This document shows positions 1-40,108 of a DNA stretch of 64,000 nt, piece after piece. A model generated the notes under the pieces. The model saw only the letters and a program-made list of their open reading frames with translations, was not told the DNA's origin and did no database searches. Both the position numbers and the translations under genes were made by a program. The DNA comes from an uncultured Bdellovibrionales bacterium (lineage in GTDB: Bacteria; Patescibacteriota; Minisyncoccia; Moranbacterales; GWC2-37-73): assembly GCA_964609855.1 (NCBI GenBank), contig CAZSTB010000001.1:119170-183169 (forward strand), written 5' to 3'. Position 1 is the stretch's first letter. Each line of letters opens with the position of its first letter.

Positions 1-960
1 CATTTAACCGAATTTTTAATCGGTTATCAAAATACTTGTATTGTGATTTCGCATGATGCTGACTTCTTGAATTCTTTTACGGACGGAGTTTTGTACCTGG
101 ATGTTTTTACGCGAAAAGTTGATCAATATCTAGGCGATTATTATGTGGTGGTTGCTGAAATCGCTGCGCGCATCGAAAAAGAAAAAATGAAAAATGCGCA
201 ATATGAAAAAGAAATTATTGCCAACAAGGAAAAGGCGAACTTTTTTGCGAATAAAGGAGGAAAAATGCGTCTTGTGGCGCGCCGCATGCGTGATAAAGCC
301 GAAGAAATGGAAGCTGCAAAGGTTGATGTGCGAAGAGAAGACCAGTCAATTAGAGGCTTTACGATTCCCACACAAGACGACCTTGTCGGTGATATCATTA
401 AAATCTCTGCTTTAACAGTGGTTATTAATCATCATCCATACCCGAAAGAGGTTAATGTTTCCCTGAAGAAAAATCAGCATCTGCTGCTGGCTGGGCCTAA
501 CGGAATCGGAAAAAGTACCCTATTGGAATCTATGGCAACCGGAAAAGCTGAGGGCGCAAAAATTTCTGAAAGTGTCCGGGTGGGATATTACCGTCAGGAT
601 TTTTCTACACTGAATTTTGAAGATACTGTATATGAATCTTTGGCTGGAGTAATGAACAGGACAGATGAGGAGAAATTACGTTCGGTGGCGTCAGGATTTT
701 TGATTGATCGCAAAATGATCAATTCGAAAATCGGCGTACTTTCTGAAGGACAAAAGGGCTTGGTTGCTTTTGCGCGCTTAGTGCTGCAAGAACCGGGACT
801 ACTGATTTTAGATGAACCCACTAATCACATAAACTTCCGCCATCTGCCGATTATTGCTCAGGCCTTGAGTAAATATGAAGGAGCGATGATATTGGTTTCC
901 CATGTTGCGGAATTCGTGGAGCAAATTCGCATTGATGAAATCTTGGACTTGGAAAAATAA
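1..960 (+). CDS. ABC-F family ATPase, 5'-truncated at window edge (C-terminal ABC domain present)
   Basis: Frame is open from nt 1. VISHD H-loop motif lies at the very start. A second Walker A (GPNGIGKST) and an LSEGQK...LILDEPTNH signature/Walker B follow. This is the tandem-ABC ABC-F architecture with no TM domain. Confidence 0.8.
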   Translation, partial: HLTEFLIGYQNTCIVISHDADFLNSFTDGVLYLDVFTRKVDQYLGDYYVVVAEIAARIEKEKMKNAQYEKEIIANKEKANFFANKGGKMRLVARRMRDKAEEMEAAKVDVRREDQSIRGFTIPTQDDLVGDIIKISALTVVINHHPYPKEVNVSLKKNQHLLLAGPNGIGKSTLLESMATGKAEGAKISESVRVGYYRQDFSTLNFEDTVYESLAGVMNRTDEEKLRSVASGFLIDRKMINSKIGVLSEGQKGLVAFARLVLQEPGLLILDEPTNHINFRHLPIIAQALSKYEGAMILVSHVAEFVEQIRIDEILDLEK

Positions 961-3498: not shown

Positions 3499-4051
3499 TA
3501 ATCAAAAGAAAATTGAAAATTTTACGTTAGGCGGCGGGTGCTTTTGGTGCCTGCAGGCTATTTTTGAGCAGGTTCAAGGGGTAGAAAAAGTTATAGCGGG
3601 TTACAGTGGAGGAGTGGTTGCTAATCCAAATTATGAAGAGGTTTCCAGTGGCAAAACTGGATATGCTGAGGTTGTAAGGATTTATTATGATGCACAAAGC
3701 ATTTCCTTGGAGGATATTTTAAACATTTTTTTCAGTATTCATGACCCCACAACACTCAATAGGCAAGGTGCGGACGTTGGAACTCAGTATCGCTCAATAA
3801 TTTTATATGAAAATAAATTGGAGCATGATACGGCTGAGAAAGTAATGCTAAAATTAATTAATGAAAAAATTTTTGACGGCATGATTGTGACTGAACTTGC
3901 AGCGTTAGAAAATTTCTATCCAGCTGAAGAATATCATCAGCATTATTTTGAAAAAAACCCGACTGCGGCCTATTGCCAGTTAGTTGTTGCTCCAAAGGTT
4001 GCAAAATTCAGAAATGAATATCAAAAATTATTCAAGAAAAATTCCCTATGA
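3476..4051 (+). CDS. msrA: Peptide-methionine (S)-S-oxide reductase MsrA
   Basis: GGGCFWC active-site motif near the N-terminus. AGYSGG. Overlaps the msrB stop. Confidence 0.9.
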   Translation: MKRIMNNDNQKKIENFTLGGGCFWCLQAIFEQVQGVEKVIAGYSGGVVANPNYEEVSSGKTGYAEVVRIYYDAQSISLEDILNIFFSIHDPTTLNRQGADVGTQYRSIILYENKLEHDTAEKVMLKLINEKIFDGMIVTELAALENFYPAEEYHQHYFEKNPTAAYCQLVVAPKVAKFRNEYQKLFKKNSL

Positions 4052-4734
4052 AAAAGAAATATTTATTTTTTCTTTTTGGTATTTTGTTTTTGAGCTTTTT
4101 CATTATTTTTTACAGGAATTATTCTCCAGTAGCGCAGCAAATTCAAGAAAGCAAGCAAAGTCCAGCCGCGAAAAAAATAGAAAGTCAAGTGAATGAGAAT
4201 AATCTAGCGGTGCCTGGTCAGAATAAATCAGATGAATTTAAAATGCCTCTTGAAAAGACTTCGGAAAGAGTCACAAAGAAAGAATTCGGAAAATATGTAA
4301 CGCCCGAAAATTCTCCAGTCAGTCCGGAAAGATTCTCCGGATACCACACTGGTGTGGATTTCGAAATATTTCCCGGGGAAGAAAACGTTGAAATAAAAGT
4401 CTCTGCCATGTGCTCGGGAAAGTTGTTGGAGAAAAGATATGCTAGCGGATATGGCGGCGCGCTAGTTCAGTCTTGCCGGCTTAATAATGAGGACGTGACT
4501 GTAATTTATGGACATCTGGAGCTTGCCAGCATAGATAAAAAAATTGGTGACGATTTAAATGCTGGAGATCTTTTAGGAATTCTGGGCGATGGAAATAGCC
4601 AAGAAACAGATGGCGAACGTAAGCATTTACATCTTGGTATTCACAAAGGAAAAGATATAAATCTTTTGGGTTATGCAAAAAATCAAACTCAACTTTCGCA
4701 GTGGCACGATCCTTGTAAATGGGTTTGTGATTGA
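4048..4734 (+). CDS. M23 family metallopeptidase (LytM domain), membrane-anchored
   Basis: N-terminal TM segment. HTGVDF and GHLE...HLHLGIH zinc-binding motifs of peptidase M23. Confidence 0.75.
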   Translation: MKKKYLFFLFGILFLSFFIIFYRNYSPVAQQIQESKQSPAAKKIESQVNENNLAVPGQNKSDEFKMPLEKTSERVTKKEFGKYVTPENSPVSPERFSGYHTGVDFEIFPGEENVEIKVSAMCSGKLLEKRYASGYGGALVQSCRLNNEDVTVIYGHLELASIDKKIGDDLNAGDLLGILGDGNSQETDGERKHLHLGIHKGKDINLLGYAKNQTQLSQWHDPCKWVCD

Positions 4735-4805
4735 GTTTAAAGATAAAATTTCATAAACATTACTGCAAAATTATTAATCCATACTCATTAACATACGATA
4801 AAACC

Positions 4806-4834
4806 TTGACTTTTTCATTTTTATCCTGTATACT
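4806..4834 (+). promoter_or_regulatory. Strong sigma70-like promoter (TTGACT-17-TATACT) with no downstream ORF
   Basis: ttgactttttcatttttatcctgtatact. The next ~500 bp are palindrome-rich and have no convincing ORF. Confidence 0.45.
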
Positions 4835-4933
4835 ACTATGGTGCTAAAAAATAAAATAGTGATATTTTGCTGGGCCCGCAACAAATTTGAGTGGGCAAAT
4901 AAATATTTTATCTAATCAATAAGATATTTTTTT

Positions 4934-4996
4934 ATTGTCGAACGAAGTCGAGCGAAACGAAAATAAACTTTTCGTTTCCGAGCGAGTGATGACATC
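4934..4996. repeat. MITE-like inverted-repeat element, copy 1 (short form)
   Basis: attgtcgaacgaagtcgagcg...cgagcgagtgatgacatc. The termini match, in inverted orientation, the termini of the elements at 39627-39749 and 50724-50903. Confidence 0.5.
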
Positions 4997-5518
4997 AAAT
5001 AGGTTTAACCTGCCTGCCGGCAGGCAGGTACCTCGATGCTTGCGAGGGTTCGGGGCTTGCCCCAGGGTTAATACCTTTTATTTTCAAGCGACGCAAGTTG
5101 AAGTGATGAAATATTTCATCACTACTGATCAGTGCGGGGACGCATGAGCTTGAACAGCCTACTTTCCAGGGTGAGGAGAGTGAAAAATATTCTACTGTTA
5201 TTTTTAGGCCGAAACAAAACACCAATCGTTTACAAATAGCATTTATAAGTAAGCGAGCCATCATTAATATAGGACTTACGCGTTTATCATCAAATCTTTC
5301 GTTTTTTACGTCGGGTGGGATGGATTAGGATAATGAATGCGTGCGCCTTGAAAAAAATATGTCAAAATTTGAATTGCTTAAAAAGCTGGAATATTTAATC
5401 GCGTTTCAATCTAATTGTTTGCAGAGTGGGAACTGGGATGAATTCGACAAGATTGAAGATAGTATTAAGAAATTAGAAGTAAATATCCTTAAATCTATCG
5501 AATAAGAAATTTTGCTTT

Positions 5519-5935
5519 TCACTTGCGCCCTTTTCTTGAAGTGCAATATGCACATTTGCAGCCCATAGGTTTTATATAGGTATAAAAATACTCTTTGCCG
5601 TAATCATAACCAAGTTGTTCTCCAACCTCGATATTTCTCAGTGCAAAAATCAGTATCTGCTTTCTGCGAATTTGAACTTCACAGTTGGGCTGACATGAGT
5701 GATTGATGTAACGGCTCAAATTTTCGCGACCCTTGCCGTCAATGGCCCATTTGGAATCTATTTGGAATAAGTATTTTCCGCCTCTTAGCTCAGCTTCCTC
5801 GGTTGAAATCAGGTCGCCGGTATATTCAGAAACAAGTTTTCCTTGAGTGATTTTTTCTTTAGCAAAAAGTCCTAAACCGCTTGCAGAACGGCTTACTTGC
5901 ATTAAATTCGAATTTGTTAGTATGTATTTTGCCAT
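5519..5935 (-). CDS. SET-domain protein (putative lysine methyltransferase) with post-SET Cys cluster
   Basis: RYINHSCQPNC (NHSC SET signature), ELGEQLGYDY, and a C-terminal CKCAYC cysteine cluster. Confidence 0.8.
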   Translation of the reverse strand: MAKYILTNSNLMQVSRSASGLGLFAKEKITQGKLVSEYTGDLISTEEAELRGGKYLFQIDSKWAIDGKGRENLSRYINHSCQPNCEVQIRRKQILIFALRNIEVGEQLGYDYGKEYFYTYIKPMGCKCAYCTSRKGRK

Positions 5936-6071: not shown

Positions 6072-6416
6072 ATGAAAATTGAAACTGAAGATGGTAAAAA
6101 AATTGAAGCTATTTTTAGGGTGCTAGAAATGCCTCAGAAAGAAATAGTTGAGCATATGGACAGGATCGGGGAAGCGTTGCTTATGGATGTTGTCGCTGAG
6201 GCCTTTGCGCAGAAAGATTTTTCTCCCGAGGAGGAACTCGCTAGCAAGGATGATTTAGCTAAATTCTTGTTGGAAAATTGCAGTGAGCAGGAAATAAAAG
6301 AATTTACCGCAATTGTTTTGCATGATGTGGTGGTTGAGTATTTTTCAAAAATGCTAAAAGAACTTCCGGATGAGAAAAGGGAAGAAATTGAAAGCATCTT
6401 AAACTCCATTGAATAA
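6072..6416 (+). CDS. Hypothetical acidic protein; 8 bp overlap suggests co-translation with the downstream sigma factor
   Basis: 114 aa, Glu/Asp-rich. No motif recognised. Confidence 0.45.
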   Translation: MKIETEDGKKIEAIFRVLEMPQKEIVEHMDRIGEALLMDVVAEAFAQKDFSPEEELASKDDLAKFLLENCSEQEIKEFTAIVLHDVVVEYFSKMLKELPDEKREEIESILNSIE

Positions 6417-6996
6417 GTTATCGAAAACTGATTCGGAACTGGTTGCTGATTATTTGGCGGGGGAAGAAGCTGTACTGGAGGAACTCGTTGAAAAATATCT
6501 CAAGCCACTTTATAATTTCGTCTACCAGCTTACGCATGATTCTGGTGCGGCTGAAGATATCGTGCAGGATGTATTTGTGAAAATGTGGAAAAATCTGGAT
6601 TCTTTCGATAGAGAAAAAAAATTCTCAACTTGGATTTTTGCGATAGCTAAGAATGCGGCATTGGATTGGTTGAAAAAGAAAAGAAGTTTTAGTTTTTCTT
6701 TTTTCTCGAGTGAGGCTGAAGCCAATGGGCTTGATGAAATTGAAGATGATTCCGCTTGGCATGGAAATGATCTATTAGAATTAATCGATAATAGAAAGGA
6801 TATAGAGAAATTACTGTCAACCATTTCTTCAGAAGCAAAGACAATTTTACTGCTTCATCAGGTGCATGGTTTTTCTTTGATGGAGGTTTCGCAAATCATG
6901 GGGCAATCTTCAAACACAACTAAAAGTAAGTATCGTAGAGCTATTTTGAATTTACGGAAGTTGGTAGGTGGCACTGCGCTGAAGACCTCGAAATAA
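6409..6996 (+). CDS. ECF-type RNA polymerase sigma-70 family factor
   Basis: Region 2 (DIVQDVFVKMWKNLDSFD...FSTWIFAIAKNAALDW) and region 4 HTH (LHQVHGFSLMEVSQIMGQSSNTTKSKYRRA). Confidence 0.85.
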   Translation: MNKLSKTDSELVADYLAGEEAVLEELVEKYLKPLYNFVYQLTHDSGAAEDIVQDVFVKMWKNLDSFDREKKFSTWIFAIAKNAALDWLKKKRSFSFSFFSSEAEANGLDEIEDDSAWHGNDLLELIDNRKDIEKLLSTISSEAKTILLLHQVHGFSLMEVSQIMGQSSNTTKSKYRRAILNLRKLVGGTALKTSK

Positions 6997-7103
6997 AAAG
7001 ATCAATCCCCTCGGATTGGTTTTTTATCGTCCAATGAAGTAAATGAAGTGGGTCCTAATCTTTTATTGCACCCAGACTGACAATTAATTCGTATTATAAA
7101 TAT

Positions 7104-7506: not shown

Positions 7507-7998
7507 ATGATGAAAAATATTGATCAAGTAGTTACTTCAAAATACTTTAAATTTATTTTATTTGGTCTGGGAGCAATAATTCTCTTGATAGCAGTCTTTT
7601 CCGCTGGGGTTAGGGTTGGTTTCAGGAAAGCCAGTTTTTCGAATGAATTTGGAGAAAATTATGAAAGAAATTTCATGGGTGGACCAAGAGGTCAAATGAT
7701 GGAAGGCCGGGGAAAATCCAATGGGCCAATGGGCGCATTCAGGGAATTTGAAGGGAGAGGCTTTCGTAATGCGCACGGAGTTGCTGGAAACATAATTTCA
7801 GTAAATGATGAAGTAATCATCATAAAAGATGGTGATAATAAAGAAAACACCGTAAGTATTACTGAAAAGACCCTAATTAAATCGCGCGGTGGCGATTTGG
7901 AAAAAAGCAGTCTCGAAAACGGTCAGCGTCTGGTTGTCGTGGGGAAGCCTGACAAAATGGGAACTATTGTGGCTGAGCTAATTAGGGTGTTTGAATAG
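7507..7998 (+). CDS. Membrane-anchored protein with a Gly/Arg-rich linker and a C-terminal beta-rich domain (paralog family A)
   Basis: N-terminal TM. C-terminal region aligns with 11291..11752 and 43641..44048 on a shared GxIISxx...IKxxDG...GQxxxVxGxxxxDGxIxAxxI pattern. Confidence 0.5.
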   Translation: MMKNIDQVVTSKYFKFILFGLGAIILLIAVFSAGVRVGFRKASFSNEFGENYERNFMGGPRGQMMEGRGKSNGPMGAFREFEGRGFRNAHGVAGNIISVNDEVIIIKDGDNKENTVSITEKTLIKSRGGDLEKSSLENGQRLVVVGKPDKMGTIVAELIRVFE

Positions 7999-9199
7999 AT
8001 TTAATAAAAAATTTAAAATAAAAGTTGCTATGAAAAAATGGAAGATTTTTGCCATCGTTGCATTATTAGGAGTCGTGATATATTACTGGTATAGTCAGAA
8101 AAATGATATTGCTAAGGCCATTCAATATAAAACAACTGTTGCGGAAAAGAGCAGTTTGACGACTTCAGTTTCTGCGAGCGGAAATGTCGTGGTTGACCAA
8201 TTGGCAACTGTTGATCCTACAATCACGGGAACAGTTGCAGATTTGGCGGTAAATGTTGGAGAAAATGTAAAAAGGGGGGCTCGGCTCTTTACTATTATCA
8301 ATGACGATCTTTCAGTAAGTAACAACAAATCAGTAGCATCTTTGCAGCAAGCTGAAAATTCAGTAGCCTCGGCGAAGCTTCAGGTGAAGCAGGCAAAAGA
8401 AGATTATGACCAGGCTAAAGATAATGACCAAAGCAGTTCCGACCAACGAAGGATACTTAAGGATAAAATTGCAATTGCTGAAAGAGGCGTACTTGCGGCA
8501 GAAAAAAATTATGCAGCCTCTTTGGCGGACTACAAAAACCAACTTTCAGATGGCGCCAAAAGAACTGTCACCGCACCAATTGATGGAACAGTCAGTGCGA
8601 TCAATATAAAAAACGGAGATGATCTGAGCCGTCTTGCATCGAGTAGTAGCTCCAATAGTGCTCCGATTATTATCGGAGATTTGAAAACTTTGAAAGCGCA
8701 GGTGGCGGTCAATGAAGTCGATATTTCTGATGTGGAAATAGGACAGAAAGTTATGTTAACTTTCAGCGCCATCGACGGACTTTCTCTGACAGGAAAAGTT
8801 GAAAAGATGGACGCGCTCGGAACGCTTTCGCAAGGAGTTGTGACATATAATGTGACAGTGGGTTTTGATGAGATTGACTCCCGAATAAAACCGCAGATGA
8901 GTGTTTCTGCTAAAATCATTACCGAGGTGAAGCAAAATATTGTGGTCGTGCCTAACGGCGCACTTAAAACCCAAGGTAATGCTATATATATTGAAGTTTT
9001 AAATATCCAAAAGCAGCCAGAGAAGCGAACCATAGAAATCGGCGCTGCCAATAATACGGAAACCGAAATAGTCAGTGGCATCGATATTGGAGATGCTGTG
9101 ATTACGCAGACCATTGATCCCAATATTAAGACAACTACTGCTTCCAGCGGCTCTAGTAGTGGTGTTAGAATTCCAGGGCTGGGCGGAGGAGTAAGATAA
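7991..9199 (+). CDS. Periplasmic adaptor subunit (HlyD/MacA-type membrane-fusion protein)
   Basis: N-terminal TM, coiled-coil hairpin region, beta-barrel/lipoyl segments. Placed upstream of the MacB-like ATPase and permease. Confidence 0.8.
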   Translation: MNRFNKKFKIKVAMKKWKIFAIVALLGVVIYYWYSQKNDIAKAIQYKTTVAEKSSLTTSVSASGNVVVDQLATVDPTITGTVADLAVNVGENVKRGARLFTIINDDLSVSNNKSVASLQQAENSVASAKLQVKQAKEDYDQAKDNDQSSSDQRRILKDKIAIAERGVLAAEKNYAASLADYKNQLSDGAKRTVTAPIDGTVSAINIKNGDDLSRLASSSSSNSAPIIIGDLKTLKAQVAVNEVDISDVEIGQKVMLTFSAIDGLSLTGKVEKMDALGTLSQGVVTYNVTVGFDEIDSRIKPQMSVSAKIITEVKQNIVVVPNGALKTQGNAIYIEVLNIQKQPEKRTIEIGAANNTETEIVSGIDIGDAVITQTIDPNIKTTTASSGSSSGVRIPGLGGGVR

Positions 9200-9269
9200 T
9201 TTCAATAATATAGCATATACAAAAGACAAACTAAACTTATTGTTTTTTTTGAATATTGACTATTGAATA

Positions 9270-9965
9270 TTGACAATGATTGAATGCAAAAATATAACTA
9301 AAATTTATCGAAGCGGAGACGTGGAAACGGTGGCGCTCAAGGACATATCTTTTTCAATTGAGAAAGGTGAGTTTGTCGCAATTATCGGACCTTCAGGATC
9401 TGGAAAATCGACGCTGATGCATATTTTGGGCGCTCTCGATACGCCGACTTCAGGAACTTATTTGCTGGATGGATTGAAAGTGTCATCGCTCGATGACGAT
9501 AAGTTGTCACAACTCAGAAGAGATAAAATCGGTTTCGTCTTTCAGTCTTTCAATCTCTTGCCACGGACTACGGTGATGAGAAATGTCATGTTGCCACTTC
9601 TGTATAGTGACACGACATTAAAGGAGAGAGAAGCGCGCGCCAGGTTATGTTTGAAATATGCGGGCATGGAAGAGAATAAATTTTTTAATCTTTCCAATCA
9701 GCTTTCTGGTGGGCAGATGCAACGTGTGGCTATTGCTCGTTCGCTAATAAATAATCCTGCGATCATTTTGGCTGATGAACCGACTGGAAATTTGGACACT
9801 AAAACTAGCAACATCGTCATGGAAGCCTTTCAAGAATTGAATAAAAAAGGTCACACCATTATATTAATCACACATGAACCGGAAATCGCCGCATTTGCGG
9901 ACCGGATTATCACAATTCGTGATGGATTGATTGAGAGCGATAAAATAATGAAAGATAAATCGTAA
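9270..9965 (+). CDS. ABC transporter ATP-binding protein (MacB/LolD type)
   Basis: GPSGSGKST Walker [16 protein letters not shown] signature, [11 protein letters not shown] Walker B. Confidence 0.9.
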
Positions 9966-9976
9966 AAGTTAGAAAT

Positions 9977-11194
9977 ATGATCTTAGATGATTTATTGAAA
10001 GAAACCTTTTGGTCTCTTTCTGCAAACAAAGTTCGCAGCGGACTTACTATTTTGGGAATCGTTATCGGAATTGCTTCCGTGATTACAATGGTTTCTATCG
10101 GACAAGGCGCTCAAAATTCCATTCAAAGTAGTATTCAGGCAATCGGGTCAAACCTTATTATTATCAGACCAGGGGCTCAGCGAAGCGGCGGAGTGAGTGG
10201 CGGGAGCGGAAGCGGGGAAACACTTACAGTTGAAGATGCAAATGCTATCAAAAATGTCGTTGAAAATGTTGTCGCAGTTGCTCCTGAGGATTCAAAACGT
10301 GCTCAAGTTACTGCCAAGGGTACAAACACAAACACTCAAATAGTTGGGACAGTAGCTGATTACGCGATTGTGCGGAGTATCGCAATGGAGTCAGGAATTT
10401 TTATCACTGAACAGGCGGTTAAGGGATTTTCCAAAGTTGCAGTACTGGGCTCAACGACGCGAAATGATTTGTTTGGAATAAATTCTGATCCAGTCGGCAA
10501 GATTATTCGCATTAAAAATGTAGATTTCGAGGTTATTGGAGTTACTGTTGCTAAGGGTGGCAGTGGTTTTACAAATCCTGATGACAGCATCTACATCCCA
10601 ATTTCCAGCTCGCAGCATTTTATTACTGGAAATACTTTCGTGTCTTCAATCAGCGCCGCGGCATCAGATCAAGGTTCAATGACTGCGGTGCAGGAAAGTA
10701 TTTCACAGCTGCTCTTGTCGCGCCATGGTTTTTCGGATCCTAAGCAAGCAGATTTCAATCTCATGAATCAAGCCGACATAATCGCCACAGCCTCAAGCAT
10801 CACGGGGACGTTTACGATTTTACTCTCCTCAATTGCTGGAATTTCACTACTGGTCGGAGGCATCGGAATCATGAATATGATGTTGACTACAGTGACGGAG
10901 CGAACCAGGGAGATTGGCTTGAGAAAAGCTGTGGGTATCAGGAAGATTTATATTAATTTGCAATTTTTATCCGAAGCAGTGGCACTGACGTTTCTTGGAG
11001 GACTGATAGGTGTTCTACTTGGATGGGGCGCTTCGCTGGCCGTGGCTAAATTTGCAAATATGGCGACTCAAATTTCATCCTCTTCGATCCTTTTGGCTTT
11101 CGGTGTGTCTGCTGGAGTCGGAATCATCTTCGGATTCTATCCTGCGCGCCGTGCTGCAAATTTAAGTCCCATGGAGGCGTTAAGATATGAGTAA
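9977..11194 (+). CDS. ABC transporter permease (FtsX/MacB family)
   Basis: MacB-like topology: N-terminal TM, large periplasmic domain, C-terminal 3-TM FtsX domain (GIGIMNMMLTTVTERTREIGLRKAVG). Confidence 0.85.
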   Translation: MILDDLLKETFWSLSANKVRSGLTILGIVIGIASVITMVSIGQGAQNSIQSSIQAIGSNLIIIRPGAQRSGGVSGGSGSGETLTVEDANAIKNVVENVVAVAPEDSKRAQVTAKGTNTNTQIVGTVADYAIVRSIAMESGIFITEQAVKGFSKVAVLGSTTRNDLFGINSDPVGKIIRIKNVDFEVIGVTVAKGGSGFTNPDDSIYIPISSSQHFITGNTFVSSISAAASDQGSMTAVQESISQLLLSRHGFSDPKQADFNLMNQADIIATASSITGTFTILLSSIAGISLLVGGIGIMNMMLTTVTERTREIGLRKAVGIRKIYINLQFLSEAVALTFLGGLIGVLLGWGASLAVAKFANMATQISSSSILLAFGVSAGVGIIFGFYPARRAANLSPMEALRYE

Positions 11195-20140: not shown

Positions 20141-20261
20141 TGCTTCAATGCGATGCGCCAAACACACTATTGAGTGCAGGCTCGAATCGTTATGCATATT
20201 TGAGTGATTGTTAGATTGTTAACGTCTACATAGTTTATCAATAAACCATCTTTTGTCAAGG

Positions 20262-20423
20262 CACTAATCATTTAAACAGCTAATCATTCAAGCATTTAAA
20301 CAAATAAACATGTAAACATGTAAACACTTAATCATTTAAACATGTAAACATTCAAACATTCAAACATTCAAACATTCAAACAATATGAATCGCTGTTTAA
20401 ATGTTTACATGTTTAAATGATCA
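20262..20423. repeat. Iteron-like repeat block in the marR divergent promoter region
   Basis: taatcatttaaaca occurs twice, aacatgtaaaca three times, ttcaaaca four times in tandem. A 22-24 bp inverted repeat: taatcatttaaacatgtaaacatt (20329-20352) against aatgtttacatgtttaaatgatca (20399-20422). Confidence 0.6.
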
Positions 20424-20433
20424 TATGAAATGG

Positions 20434-30641: not shown

Positions 30642-31604
30642 CTATTTTTCCTTATCTAACTCGTTTAAAATATTTTTAACTTTCTGGAGTTCATCCCAGT
30701 TGTGGATGGAAATCGGAATTGCTTTCTTGTTGATTTTTTTAGCTTCTTTTAATTTTTCTTTTAAAATTTCCGGGGTAACGGTGTCTGAACGTGAGACTAG
30801 AATATATTCCGGTTTTTCTAACAATGTTGGATTGAAAGCGCCAAGCTCAGCGCGAATAGTTTTGTAATCAGCGGTAATGTCTTCACTGTCAGCGGCCAAG
30901 AAATGAAAAATAATCTTTGTTCGCTCGACGTGTTTCAAGAATTTGATTCCCAAGCCTTTGCCGTCGGACGCACCTTCAATCAATCCAGGAATGTCAGCTA
31001 GGATAAGACTGTAATAAACGCCGAGATTAGGTTCAAGGGTGGTAAATTGATAGTTGGCAACTTTTACGTTGGCGTTGGTAAGTTCATTTAGCAGCGAAGA
31101 TTTACCAAGATTTGGAAGTCCGACAAAGCCGATATCCGCTATCATTTTCAGTTCAAGTCGAAGTTCAAATGCCTGTCCCGGTTTACCTTCCTCGAATTCT
31201 TTCGGAGTTGTATTTTTCGAACCACGGAACTGAAAGTTTCCGCGACCTCCGCGTCCTCCTTTGGCAATCAAAATTTCCTCTCCAACTTTGGTGATTTCTT
31301 GAGATTCTCCAGTAGTAAGATTGTTGATCACTGTCCCAACGGGAATTTTGATGATTTCATCTTTTGCATCAGGACCATCACAAAATTGGCCTTTGCCCTC
31401 GCGCCCGTTTTCAGCATTAACTTGTTTTCTGAAACGAAATTGATTGAGGGCATTAAGATCGGAGACGCCTTTAAAGATAACGCTTCCTCCTCGTCCGCCA
31501 CTTCCGCCAGCTGGTCCAAGACTCATCAGGTTCTTGTTGAAAGCCACGCAGCCCTTGCCTCCGTTTCCAGCTGAAACTTCAATTTTAATATCATCTATGA
31601 GCAT
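30642..31604 (-). CDS. obg: GTPase Obg/CgtA
   Basis: Gly-rich Obg fold (DEAKIxVKAGNGGKG, GPAGGSGGRGGSVIF). G domain GLPNLGKSSLLN. Start assigned to Met16 of the listed ORF (MLIDDIKIEV). Confidence 0.9.
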   Translation of the reverse strand: MLIDDIKIEVSAGNGGKGCVAFNKNLMSLGPAGGSGGRGGSVIFKGVSDLNALNQFRFRKQVNAENGREGKGQFCDGPDAKDEIIKIPVGTVINNLTTGESQEITKVGEEILIAKGGRGGRGNFQFRGSKNTTPKEFEEGKPGQAFELRLELKMIADIGFVGLPNLGKSSLLNELTNANVKVANYQFTTLEPNLGVYYSLILADIPGLIEGASDGKGLGIKFLKHVERTKIIFHFLAADSEDITADYKTIRAELGAFNPTLLEKPEYILVSRSDTVTPEILKEKLKEAKKINKKAIPISIHNWDELQKVKNILNELDKEK

Positions 31605-39602: not shown

Positions 39603-39626
39603 GAATAAAAGGGGCCATACCTTTTT

Positions 39627-39749
39627 GATGTCATTACTCGCTCGGAAATGGAAACATGCCTTACATATTTCTGCGTTCACTCGGAAAAGAAAAAAAGTAT
39701 AGTTTCTGTTTGAAAATTAATTTCCATTTCGCTCACTTCGCTCGACAAT
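39627..39749. repeat. MITE-like inverted-repeat element, copy 2
   Basis: gatgtcattactcgctcggaaatggaaa...tttccatttcgctcacttcgctcgacaat. Termini are reverse complements of the copy-1 termini. Contains an internal long palindrome. Confidence 0.5.
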
Positions 39750-39781
39750 AAAAATAGGAACCCGCGCTTTGCATCGGATTC

Positions 39782-40108
39782 CTAAAATTCAATTGTGATT
39801 CCCATTTTTTCCAGTACCTTTTTTGTTTGGGGGTCGGAAGCTATCTTCCAACTCGCCGTCGTGACAAGTTTTTCCAGAGAAGGAAATTTTTTTCGTAAGC
39901 TGGGGTTGTCGTATACCAGATTACTAAGGTCGGTTACGAAAGCGTTTAAACTTTCAATTATGCCGTTTCTTTGACTTTCACTGGATTGGTCAAAAATTTT
40001 GCATAGCCTGAAAATTTCGGCTGCTAGGTGAAAGGCGTTCTCTTTGAAACCTTGAAGTTTCTTTGGCGAAATTCTTTGACTGGTGGGATATCTGTATTTG
40101 ATTGTCAA
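39782..40108 (-). CDS. Hypothetical protein
   Basis: 108 aa; no motif recognised. Confidence 0.4.
   Translation of the reverse strand: MTIKYRYPTSQRISPKKLQGFKENAFHLAAEIFRLCKIFDQSSESQRNGIIESLNAFVTDLSNLVYDNPSLRKKFPSLEKLVTTASWKIASDPQTKKVLEKMGITIEF

Follow-up and report, generated by a model that had tools for sequence, protein, structure and literature searches.

The window analysed here is a stretch of 64,000 nucleotides (nt) of DNA from an uncultured member of the Patescibacteria. The interval of interest lies near its start, between an M23 peptidase gene (4048 - 4734, plus strand) and a small open reading frame (ORF) of 48 amino acids (5359 - 5505, plus strand), which is followed by a SET-domain gene on the minus strand. 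From left to right it holds a promoter, a leader RNA or small RNA (sRNA), one copy of a repeat composed of a rod (module A) and a terminator-like 3' part (module B), a structured insert and a spacer, all described on the plus strand. A preliminary description, made from the sequence alone, took the interval for a strong promoter feeding about 500 nt of palindrome-rich, non-coding DNA, a candidate structured RNA. The features on which it relied are real and non-random, but three unrelated things had been merged into one RNA. The interval is instead read here as a mosaic of a leader unit, a repeat copy, an extra insert and an ancestral spacer, with a probability of about 0.65.

The G+C content is 50 - 54% at 4950 - 5100 compared to ~30% around it. 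Two perfect palindromes of 22 nt are found at 5008 - 5029 (core CCTGCCTGCCGGCAGGCAGG, 5009 - 5028) and at 5102 - 5123 (core 5103 - 5122), a hairpin with arms GAAACGAAAA/TTTTCGTTTC occupies 4954 - 4963/4969 - 4978, and the palindrome GGGGCTTGCCCC is at 5052 - 5063. All four are where they had been reported, and the two 20-nt cores have close to no chance expectation (0 and 0.01 matches in shuffled sequences). The stretch folds better than its shuffles on both strands (z = -4.2 and -5.0). Such similar values are to be expected of palindromes, and they do not point to the strand that matters. No credible ORF is present in 4735 - 5358, as had been noted. A scan of the whole window with Rfam 15 gave no match at the gathering score, in line with the earlier failure to recognize known RNA cores, and at E ≤ 10 the region 4600 - 5600 gave noise alone (≤ 21.5 bits). 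A scan for tRNA and tmRNA found none of either.

The promoter (4806 - 4834) is of the sigma-70 type. It consists of a -35 hexamer TTGACT (4806 - 4811), a 17-nt spacer and a -10 hexamer TATACT (4829 - 4834), and agrees with the consensus at 10 of 12 positions, as first described. The 2.5-kb neighbourhood contains 7 promoter-like sites compared to 7.9 expected from shuffles. The consensus match alone thus proves nothing, and the support for the promoter comes from its conservation in relatives. Both hexamers are invariant in six genomes (alignment A4). The promoter and the RNA that follows it occur at the syntenic site in five related Moranbacteria among the loci collected for comparison, designated L036 (with L037), L042, L043, L044 and L046. 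Promoter and leader together are 83% identical to those of L036, the nearest relative, against 59 - 75% for five neighbouring genes or spacers.

The leader, ~95 nt in length (4838 - 4934), is described by the covariance model R3, which scores 94.3 bits (E = 2.5e-14) on the window, itself one of the six sequences from which R3 was built. The other significant matches are single syntenic sites in L036, L042, L043, L044 and L046, and no further copy is found elsewhere in the window. There is one copy per genome, and it is upstream of the 48-residue ORF in all six genomes compared, the position expected of a riboswitch or attenuator. A different, unrelated leader is present in L045. In L042, L043, L044 and L046, the T-run at the leader's end has eight T's and is separated from the ATG by about 65 - 110 nt (beginning GTTGCCAAAAT); in L036 the distance to the ORF is about 190 nt and includes an inserted repeat copy. 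The conserved parts of the leader are a 5' GGUG, an A-rich stretch, the motif (U/G)AUAUUUU, a hairpin called P2, and a terminator with the arms AAAUAUUUUAU/AUAAGRUAUUU followed by seven or eight U's.

P2 (4874 - 4896) pairs GCCCGC with GUGGGC around an 11-nt loop that starts with AA and ends with GA. All six pairs can form in each of the six genomes, where one compensatory change and several replacements of G-C by G-U are seen. Downstream, an AU-rich hairpin resembling an intrinsic terminator (4901 - 4933) is formed by AAAUAUUUUAU (4901 - 4911), a 7-nt loop and AUAAGAUAUUU (4919 - 4929), and a run of seven T's (4927 - 4933) overlaps the last three bases of its 3' arm. The 12 pairs of this hairpin are invariant or wobble, and the hairpin and its T-run of seven or eight are retained in all six genomes. 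A putative antiterminator, P1 (4862 - 4906), pairs AUAUUU (4862 - 4867) with AAAUAU (4901 - 4906); it encloses P2 and consumes the 5' arm of the terminator. When the leader is truncated before the 3' terminator arm, folding at minimum energy gives an 8-bp version of P1 (AUAUUUUA/UGAAAUAU) in L036, L042, L043, L044 and L046. In the window a 6-bp pairing is possible but is not the minimum-energy fold, so that the antiterminator is predicted in five of six genomes.

This layout of terminator and antiterminator within a conserved leader suggests a transcription-attenuation switch, either riboswitch-like or protein-dependent, acting on the 48-residue ORF as the most likely function. A housekeeping-type promoter would start an RNA of ~95 nt ending at the AU-rich hairpin and the T-run (about 4838 - 4934), and the AUAUUU(U) segment would bind the terminator's 5' arm, enclosing P2, and so compete with termination. 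Like attenuators and riboswitches, the leader has a constitutive-type promoter, a conserved 5' domain in which P1 encloses P2, a terminator whose 5' arm can pair upstream, and an ORF behind it. Unlike known riboswitches, it has no Rfam match, is very AU-rich and very small, and is parted from its ORF by insertions in the window; statistical support from covariation would take more than its six sequences.

Several observations weigh against attenuation. The terminator stem has about 0 - 1 G-C pairs and was missed by the terminator scan, for which at least three are required. The alignment consists of six sequences in which two pairs show a compensatory change, and the fold is no better than that of shuffles (z = -1.6 and +0.4). 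Furthermore, in the window the repeat, with its terminator-like module, sits between the leader and the ORF. Control by read-through would there require a leaky module B or a separate promoter for the ORF.

The stretch 4838 - 4934 could also be an independent, trans-acting sRNA with its own promoter and terminator, and no leader at all. This is a serious alternative, although less probable than the attenuator. Promoter and terminator are complete, insertions of 75 - 270 nt in front of the ORF are tolerated in the window and in L036, and there is a weak promoter-like site at 5305 - 5334. However, in the four relatives without a spacer insertion the RNA is strictly linked to the same ORF at about 65 - 110 nt, the predicted competition between antiterminator and terminator is typical of attenuators, and the copy inserted in L036 lacks the terminator-like module B. 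There is no conserved leader peptide: the reading frame of the ORFs (25 and 28 codons) that start at the leader's ATG is not the same in L036 as in the window, and L042 - L046 have no such ORF.

The 48-residue ORF is the first gene after the leader. It is conserved, with 26 relatives at 64 - 80% identity, and a Pfam search with it gave no match. Further downstream in the window are genes for an ECF-like (extracytoplasmic function) sigma-70 factor (6409 - 6996) and for a HlyD-type protein (7991 - 9199). In at least one relative, a gene for an ECF-like sigma factor is next after the small ORF and is followed by an efflux-type (membrane fusion protein, MFP) gene. The lineage is uncultured and hardly any regulation is known in it, and the leader offers a small candidate regulatory RNA.

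Two minor observations concern the leader and its ORF. In L044 (2285 - 2410), another sequence of about 90 nt (TTCAAATCAGGCGAGTGAAATTAATTTGC...GGTCGCTTATTTATT) sits in the loop of the leader's terminator hairpin. In the window, 47 nt of the small ORF (5431 - 5477) match 30655 - 30701, about 25 kb away, in inverted orientation at 72%. The latter may be a diverged paralogue of the ORF on the minus strand, judging by this match; R3 found no leader at 30655 - 30701.

The repeat begins where the leader ends. Copy 1 (4930 - 5081) is ~152 nt long, and its first T's overlap the T-run of the leader. It is larger than the element first described and contains three of the four palindromes; these palindromes are thus parts of an inserted repeat copy and do not form one structure with the rest. 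On module A the covariance model R1, which has copy 1 in its seed, scores 83.1 bits, and R2, built from copies in the comparison loci only, scores 82.6 bits. BLASTN matches to copy 1 extend over 150 - 170 nt in L011, L012, L006, L017 and L020. Copy 2 (39605 - 39753, minus strand; R2 68.8 bits, E = 4.3e-15), which bears out the earlier statement that the repeat is present in multiple copies, carries a 63-nt insertion in its variable hairpin and a short module B. It is placed after the terminator of a minus-strand gene (39782 - 40108), between convergent genes.

Module A (4930 - 5002) is a rod in which UUU pairs with AAA, followed by helices P1 (UGUCG/UGACA), P2 (AC/GU) and P3 (GC/GC) and a variable tip hairpin (4954 - 4978). 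The three internal loops of the rod have G and A on both strands, and both arms carry direct CGAR/GAGY tetranucleotide repeats. The tip is free to vary in sequence: AT-rich hosts have AAACGAAAA/UUUUCGUUU at one extreme, and GC-rich hosts have CGCGACGCG-CUUG-CGCGUCAUG at the other. The tip can gain insertions, such as the 63 nt of copy 2, or be deleted: population variants in L017 (~2585 - 2644) and L023 (~6973 - 7030) have lost exactly the module A tip relative to L034 and L030, with GAAATGATTC running directly into CGAGCG. The tip is therefore dispensable and unstable.

Module B (4997 - 5081) begins in the A-run after the rod. Its terminator-like closing stem, AAAUAGGUUUAA ... GGGUUAAUACCUUUUAU in the window and AAAAGGUUUAAUACC ... 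GGUAUUAAUACCCUUUU followed by AU(U)(U) in general, encloses hairpins at 5031 - 5047 and 5052 - 5063, and the copy ends in UUUUAU. Short forms of the module are a simple hairpin and a U-run, and resemble terminators. Long forms have two to four hairpins, many of which carry CUUG or GCAA loops, in a junction that the stem closes. The stems covary and end in UUUAUUUU, but the long forms are branched, unlike classical terminators. The window's GGGGCUUGCCCC is the third hairpin of the module (5052 - 5063, GGGG-CUUG-CCCC).

The palindrome CCTGCCTGCCGGCAGGCAGG (5009 - 5028, 20 nt) is an extra mini-hairpin nested in module B. It is absent from most copies and is found at the same place in the copy at 4154 - 4191 of L006. 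The palindrome CCTGCCTGCC(R)G(Y)AG(R)CAGG recurs outside the elements, at 4101 - 4132 of L010 and 9995 - 10014 of L021, which are other Patescibacteria contigs. From this pattern it seems to be a separate mini-hairpin repeat.

A covariance model made from 21 copies found 33 matches in the comparison loci, representing 26 distinct sequences. They include two more subfamilies with compensatory changes in P1 and P2 of the rod, one with UAUCA...GAUA and GC/GC and the other with UUUUA/UAAAA. In module A, 95.9% of the cells are paired and 8 of 19 pairs have changed on both sides, although the alignment was fitted to the model and these numbers lean towards structure. None of 500 shuffles reaches the observed pairing values, and in slid controls 29 - 56% of cells are paired. 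Compensatory changes are also seen in hairpins 1 and 3 of module B when 10 copies from the two phyla are compared. The fold of the element belongs to the strand shown: there are 32 G·U pairs compared to 8 A·C, and all of 21 copies fold better as the top strand than as its complement. The commonest hairpin loop among the copies is CUUG.

The history of the site can be followed by comparison with L036 and L037, a GW2011_GWC2_37_8-type genome, and with L002. The gene order RsgA, a 137-residue gene, MsrB, MsrA, M23, the interval, the small ORF and the minus-strand SET gene is kept in L036/L037, where the M23 protein is only 55% identical to that of the window. Other M23 homologues were less useful for synteny: L039 and L041 are not syntenic, and L040 is without leader or small ORF. 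The intergenic region of L036 contains, in order, a subfamily-2 copy right after the M23 gene, an rve-domain transposase gene of the insertion sequence (IS) type (8997 - 10064; 7504 - 8571 in L037), the promoter and ~95-nt leader, a subfamily-3 copy and the spacer. The subfamily-3 copy consists of module A only and directly follows the T-run, with the same junction as in the window. The rve gene and two repeat copies make this region of L036 an insertion hotspot. The stop codon TGA of the rve gene falls inside the -35 hexamer TTGACT.

L002, from another sample, encodes an identical SET protein and is 99.5% identical to the window in nucleotide sequence from ~5323 onward. It begins with AATAAGGTATTTTTTTT running directly into GTTGCCAAAATC, so that the T-run leads straight into GTTGCCAAAATC as in L042 and L043. 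As judged from these sequences, this junction is the empty ancestral state. The comparative alignment thus divides the interval: 4806 - 4934 is conserved across relatives, whereas 4936 to ~5260 is missing in L002. The window allele has about 270 extra nt (4934 - 5204), made up of the 152-nt element and 123 nt more.

These additional nucleotides (5082 - 5204), which contain the second 22-nt palindrome (5102 - 5123), would be an extra inserted sequence and are left unassigned. Their predicted fold has two domains (z = -2.9 for the plus strand, -3.4 for the minus strand), and BLASTN with them gave no match in any of the loci. At 5076 - 5103, 22 of 28 positions are identical to the 5' end of subfamily 2 by our own count, and the insert may be a degenerate second tandem copy. 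The scores for such a copy at 5076 - 5148 are 9.1 bits with R1 (E = 0.09 in 701 nt) and 11.4 bits with R2 (E = 3.7 in the whole window), the latter not significant. The remainder, 5205 - 5358, is the ancestral spacer or 5' untranslated region (UTR) of the small ORF. It is 63% identical to L036 10262 - 10389, compared to 53.2 ± 1.9 (maximum 59.7) for shuffles, and can also be aligned to L002.

Copies of the repeat vary from 83 to 178 nt in length and are found at unrelated loci, mostly just after stop codons or the T-runs of terminators. A scan for exact matches to a conserved 19 - 21-mer of the core was made against species-representative genomes and a metagenome collection. It found Candidatus Moranbacteria GW2011_GWC2_37_8 with five exact-core copies, two other Patescibacteria metagenome-assembled genomes (MAGs), one Oscillospiraceae MAG and 20 metagenome contigs; the exact core is thus present in 4 of 185,579 species representatives. 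Genomes of the GW2011_GWC2_37_8 type have at least 9 copies. GC-rich copies come from termite-gut contigs, and one gene neighbouring them is most similar to Oscillospiraceae and Sporobacter proteins, which places the element in Bacillota as well as in Patescibacteria. About 45 nucleotides of junction and core are nearly identical across these phyla. Genome matches in L005, L007, L009 and L014 were rejected as chance 19-mers in GC-rich coding DNA. A single match among viral contigs, the 19-mer without the rest of the element, was also treated as chance. Plasmid and phage collections gave no match to the element.

By our own tally from ORF maps, the copy has the same direction as the gene upstream of it in about 14 of 18 clear cases, and three copies (L008, L013, L021) are antisense to both neighbours. 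In L004 (~230 - 492, minus strand), an ORF continues through the copy that it contains (MINKNK...FFYCRTKSSEMIRQ...), which recalls palindromic elements inserted in frame. In L025 (~400 - 480) and L011 (~2860 - 2930), a promoter-like site TGTGCTATACT and a ~70-nt hairpin (GACGGG...CCCGTC and a T-run), for which Rfam had no match, precede an element copy. The window shows the same layout, in which an element adjoins the T-run of a short transcription unit. Short-read contigs with identical flanking genes break in or beside the element, at about position 4958 of the window.

The repeat, undescribed so far, is multi-copy, is present or absent at one and the same site and occurs in two phyla, and it behaves as a non-autonomous mobile element. 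A selfish element of this kind would spread within and between genomes of Patescibacteria and Bacillota, landing at the T-rich ends of transcription units. There it would be tolerated, or sometimes be useful, by virtue of its own 3' module acting as a terminator; this activity of module B is suggested by its predicted structure. As its hairpins are strand-specific, its termini have no inverted repeats and one T-rich pentamer is found at either end, our guess is that it is mobilized in trans by a hairpin-recognizing transposase acting on single-stranded DNA, or by an enzyme of the HUH type.

Four points speak against mobility or against a simple account of it. First, TTTAT(T) is found at both ends of nearly all copies, always as the same sequence, but it is also structural, since the UUU pairs with AAA and the 3' end is a U-tract; it could be part of the structure rather than a target duplication. 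Secondly, neither a transposase nor another partner is found near the copies within the loci, in windows of 2 - 16 kb. No protein family is common to the CPR (Candidate Phyla Radiation, Patescibacteria) and termite loci near the copies, no gene for TnpA, TnpB or RAYT was seen in any locus, the search being confined to these windows, and no element ends flank the rve gene of L036. Thirdly, strong selection on a functional RNA would explain the near-invariant 45-nt core equally well. Finally, the spacers of the filled and empty alleles are ~65% identical, that is, ~35% different, so this is not a clean single insertion. Recombination with a diverged allele is likely, and a whole allele may have been imported.

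The third point is the basis of a rival reading, in which the repeat is a functional RNA family, either protein-binding modules of 3' UTRs or paralogous sRNAs, duplicated and kept by selection, with the G·A-rich rod as a binding platform and the 3' module as a terminator. The invariant junction nucleotides and covarying helices, the strand-specific fold with CUUG and GNRA-type loops, the terminator-like 3' end and the prevailing co-direction with the upstream gene are all in agreement with it. Nevertheless, it is doubtful. No conserved promoter lies upstream of the copies, some are antisense to both neighbours and one is within an ORF. The distribution is patchy, and yet the core is near-identical across two phyla; there is presence and absence at a single site, and the hairpin tip is deleted in some populations.

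A single structured RNA of ~500 nt, running from the 4806 promoter through 5350, is very improbable. It would account for a stretch that has no ORF and folds better than shuffles on both strands, but the palindromes raise the fold score equally for both. The conserved unit is closed at 4934, after ~95 nt, by the conserved hairpin and T-run. In relatives that point is followed by the short distances to the ORF given above, and most of what follows it in the window is either a repeat copy known from unrelated loci and another phylum or is lacking in L002. The proposal of a leader or sRNA therefore stands for 4806 - 4934, which is conserved together with promoter, terminator and the same ORF, and falls for the palindrome-rich part. 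Least tenable is a decayed or frameshifted protein-coding gene or IS remnant, suggested by the rve gene of L036/L037: that gene is upstream of the leader promoter and has no counterpart in the window, BLASTN of 4735 - 5520 against L036 matches the leader only, the ORFs at 4935 - 5147 (plus) and 4995 - 5264 (minus) overlap on both strands, cross the repeat and were rejected as coding, hairpin lengths of the copies differ by non-multiples of three, and the short ORFs from the leader's ATG are not conserved.

The earlier label 'MITE-like' (miniature inverted-repeat transposable element) is apt for copy number and size, in that the element is small, non-coding and multi-copy (26 distinct copies) with an empty site in L002. 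However, terminal inverted repeats are lacking: the first 30 nt and the reverse complement of the last 30 of 21 copies have a mean local score of 4.3 compared to 5.3 when shuffled. Nor was a related autonomous IS with matching ends found in the windows around the copies, which is as far as that search extended. The element is thus not a MITE by definition.

Palindrome-associated transposable elements (PATEs), derived from IS200/IS605, and REP/REPIN elements are mobilized by Y1 HUH transposases. The repeat resembles them in having no terminal inverted repeats, in strand-specific hairpins near its ends, in adjoining a T-rich motif of 4 - 5 nt (TTTAT), and in being small, non-coding and multi-copy. 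As to a fixed target, its left flank is always (T)TTAT, without inverted repeats, but the loci include no clean filled and empty pair from one strain. It differs in that modules A and B are unlike in sequence and shape rather than similar hairpins at both ends for one Y1 transposase. Furthermore, the tip of A varies freely within one genome, and no GTAG/CGTC head is evident in the copies on informal reading. The CGAR/GAGY repeats of the rod resemble the GAGC Rep-binding element and the small hairpin arms of the inverted terminal repeats (ITRs) of parvoviruses. ITRs of parvoviruses are substrates of HUH endonucleases.

The BOX elements of pneumococci, ERIC/IRU and RUP, which belong to Gram-positive and enteric bacteria, are small (~100 - 200 nt), multi-copy, non-coding, intergenic repeats that often lie within transcription units, are predicted to be strongly structured, are modular with a variable number of internal modules and encode no transposase. 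The present element is like them in being small, multi-copy, non-coding, intergenic, structured and modular. It is unlike them in lacking terminal inverted repeats, in its better fold on one strand and in its two parts, an invariant rod rich in G·A and a 3' module like a terminator, and also in being common to Patescibacteria and Bacillota nearly unchanged; this comparison is with their general description and not with their sequences.

Class C bacterial group II introns are said to insert just after intrinsic terminators (a finding attributed to Robart, Seo and Zimmerly, PNAS 2007). Like them, the element is preferentially located right behind terminator stem-loops and T-runs, for the most part oriented with transcription (W1, W2, L012, L017, L025). 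Unlike them, it is 90 - 185 nt in length and has no intron domains, no reverse transcriptase ORF and no group II match in Rfam. In the attC sites of integrons, the R''/R' core sites have the consensus RYYYAAC ... GTTRRRY. The ends of the element are TTATTGTCGAAC ... and ... GATGACATCAAA / CCTTTTAT, without GTTRRRY. Hammerhead, k-turn and attC readings of the core were also tried by hand and rejected, since the motifs fit in neither order nor register; the covarying P1 sets another register.

Neither the leader nor the repeat is in Rfam. A search of six further loci gave no match, and two more copies gave noise at E ≤ 10. Among the noise matches to Rfam were weak ones to C/D-box snoRNAs, caused by GUGAUGA. 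The core sequence was in none of the papers found in the literature, and no such CPR repeat turned up. A more ambitious proposal can be made, although it must be regarded as speculative. The element, with its rod and junction, would represent a new class of elements that move horizontally and fold strand-specifically in CPR and Firmicutes, its invariant rod being recognized by an enzyme acting in trans. Independently, the leader would represent a new class of very small riboswitch or attenuator for a small-protein/ECF-sigma operon in Moranbacteria.

To our knowledge, Patescibacteria genomes, at ~1 Mb, are very compact and not known for interspersed repeats. It is of interest that a nearly unchanged 45-nt core in Moranbacteria and termite-gut Oscillospiraceae points to gene flow or a shared mobilizing machinery. 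The element supplies ready-made terminator-like structures, breaks short-read assemblies and makes plain intergenic DNA resemble a big structured RNA.

Two other arrangements were seen. At 20249 - 20427 of the window there are about 18 tandem units of 8 nt (TAAACATG / TAAACATT / TAATCATT), with an inverted partial copy at 20385 - 20427; from its sequence, the array could be iteron-like or origin-like. In L045 (1380 - 2140), a tRNA gene cluster has blocks of ~100 nt (CTCGAACGGGAAAGGGGTCGGGAAAACGGGAG...) inserted at tRNA 3' ends, with the 3' segment of the tRNA doubled (GGTTCGATTCCTCTCGCGCCCAC, for instance, occurs twice). The arrangement has the appearance of att-type duplications or short insertions in tRNA genes.

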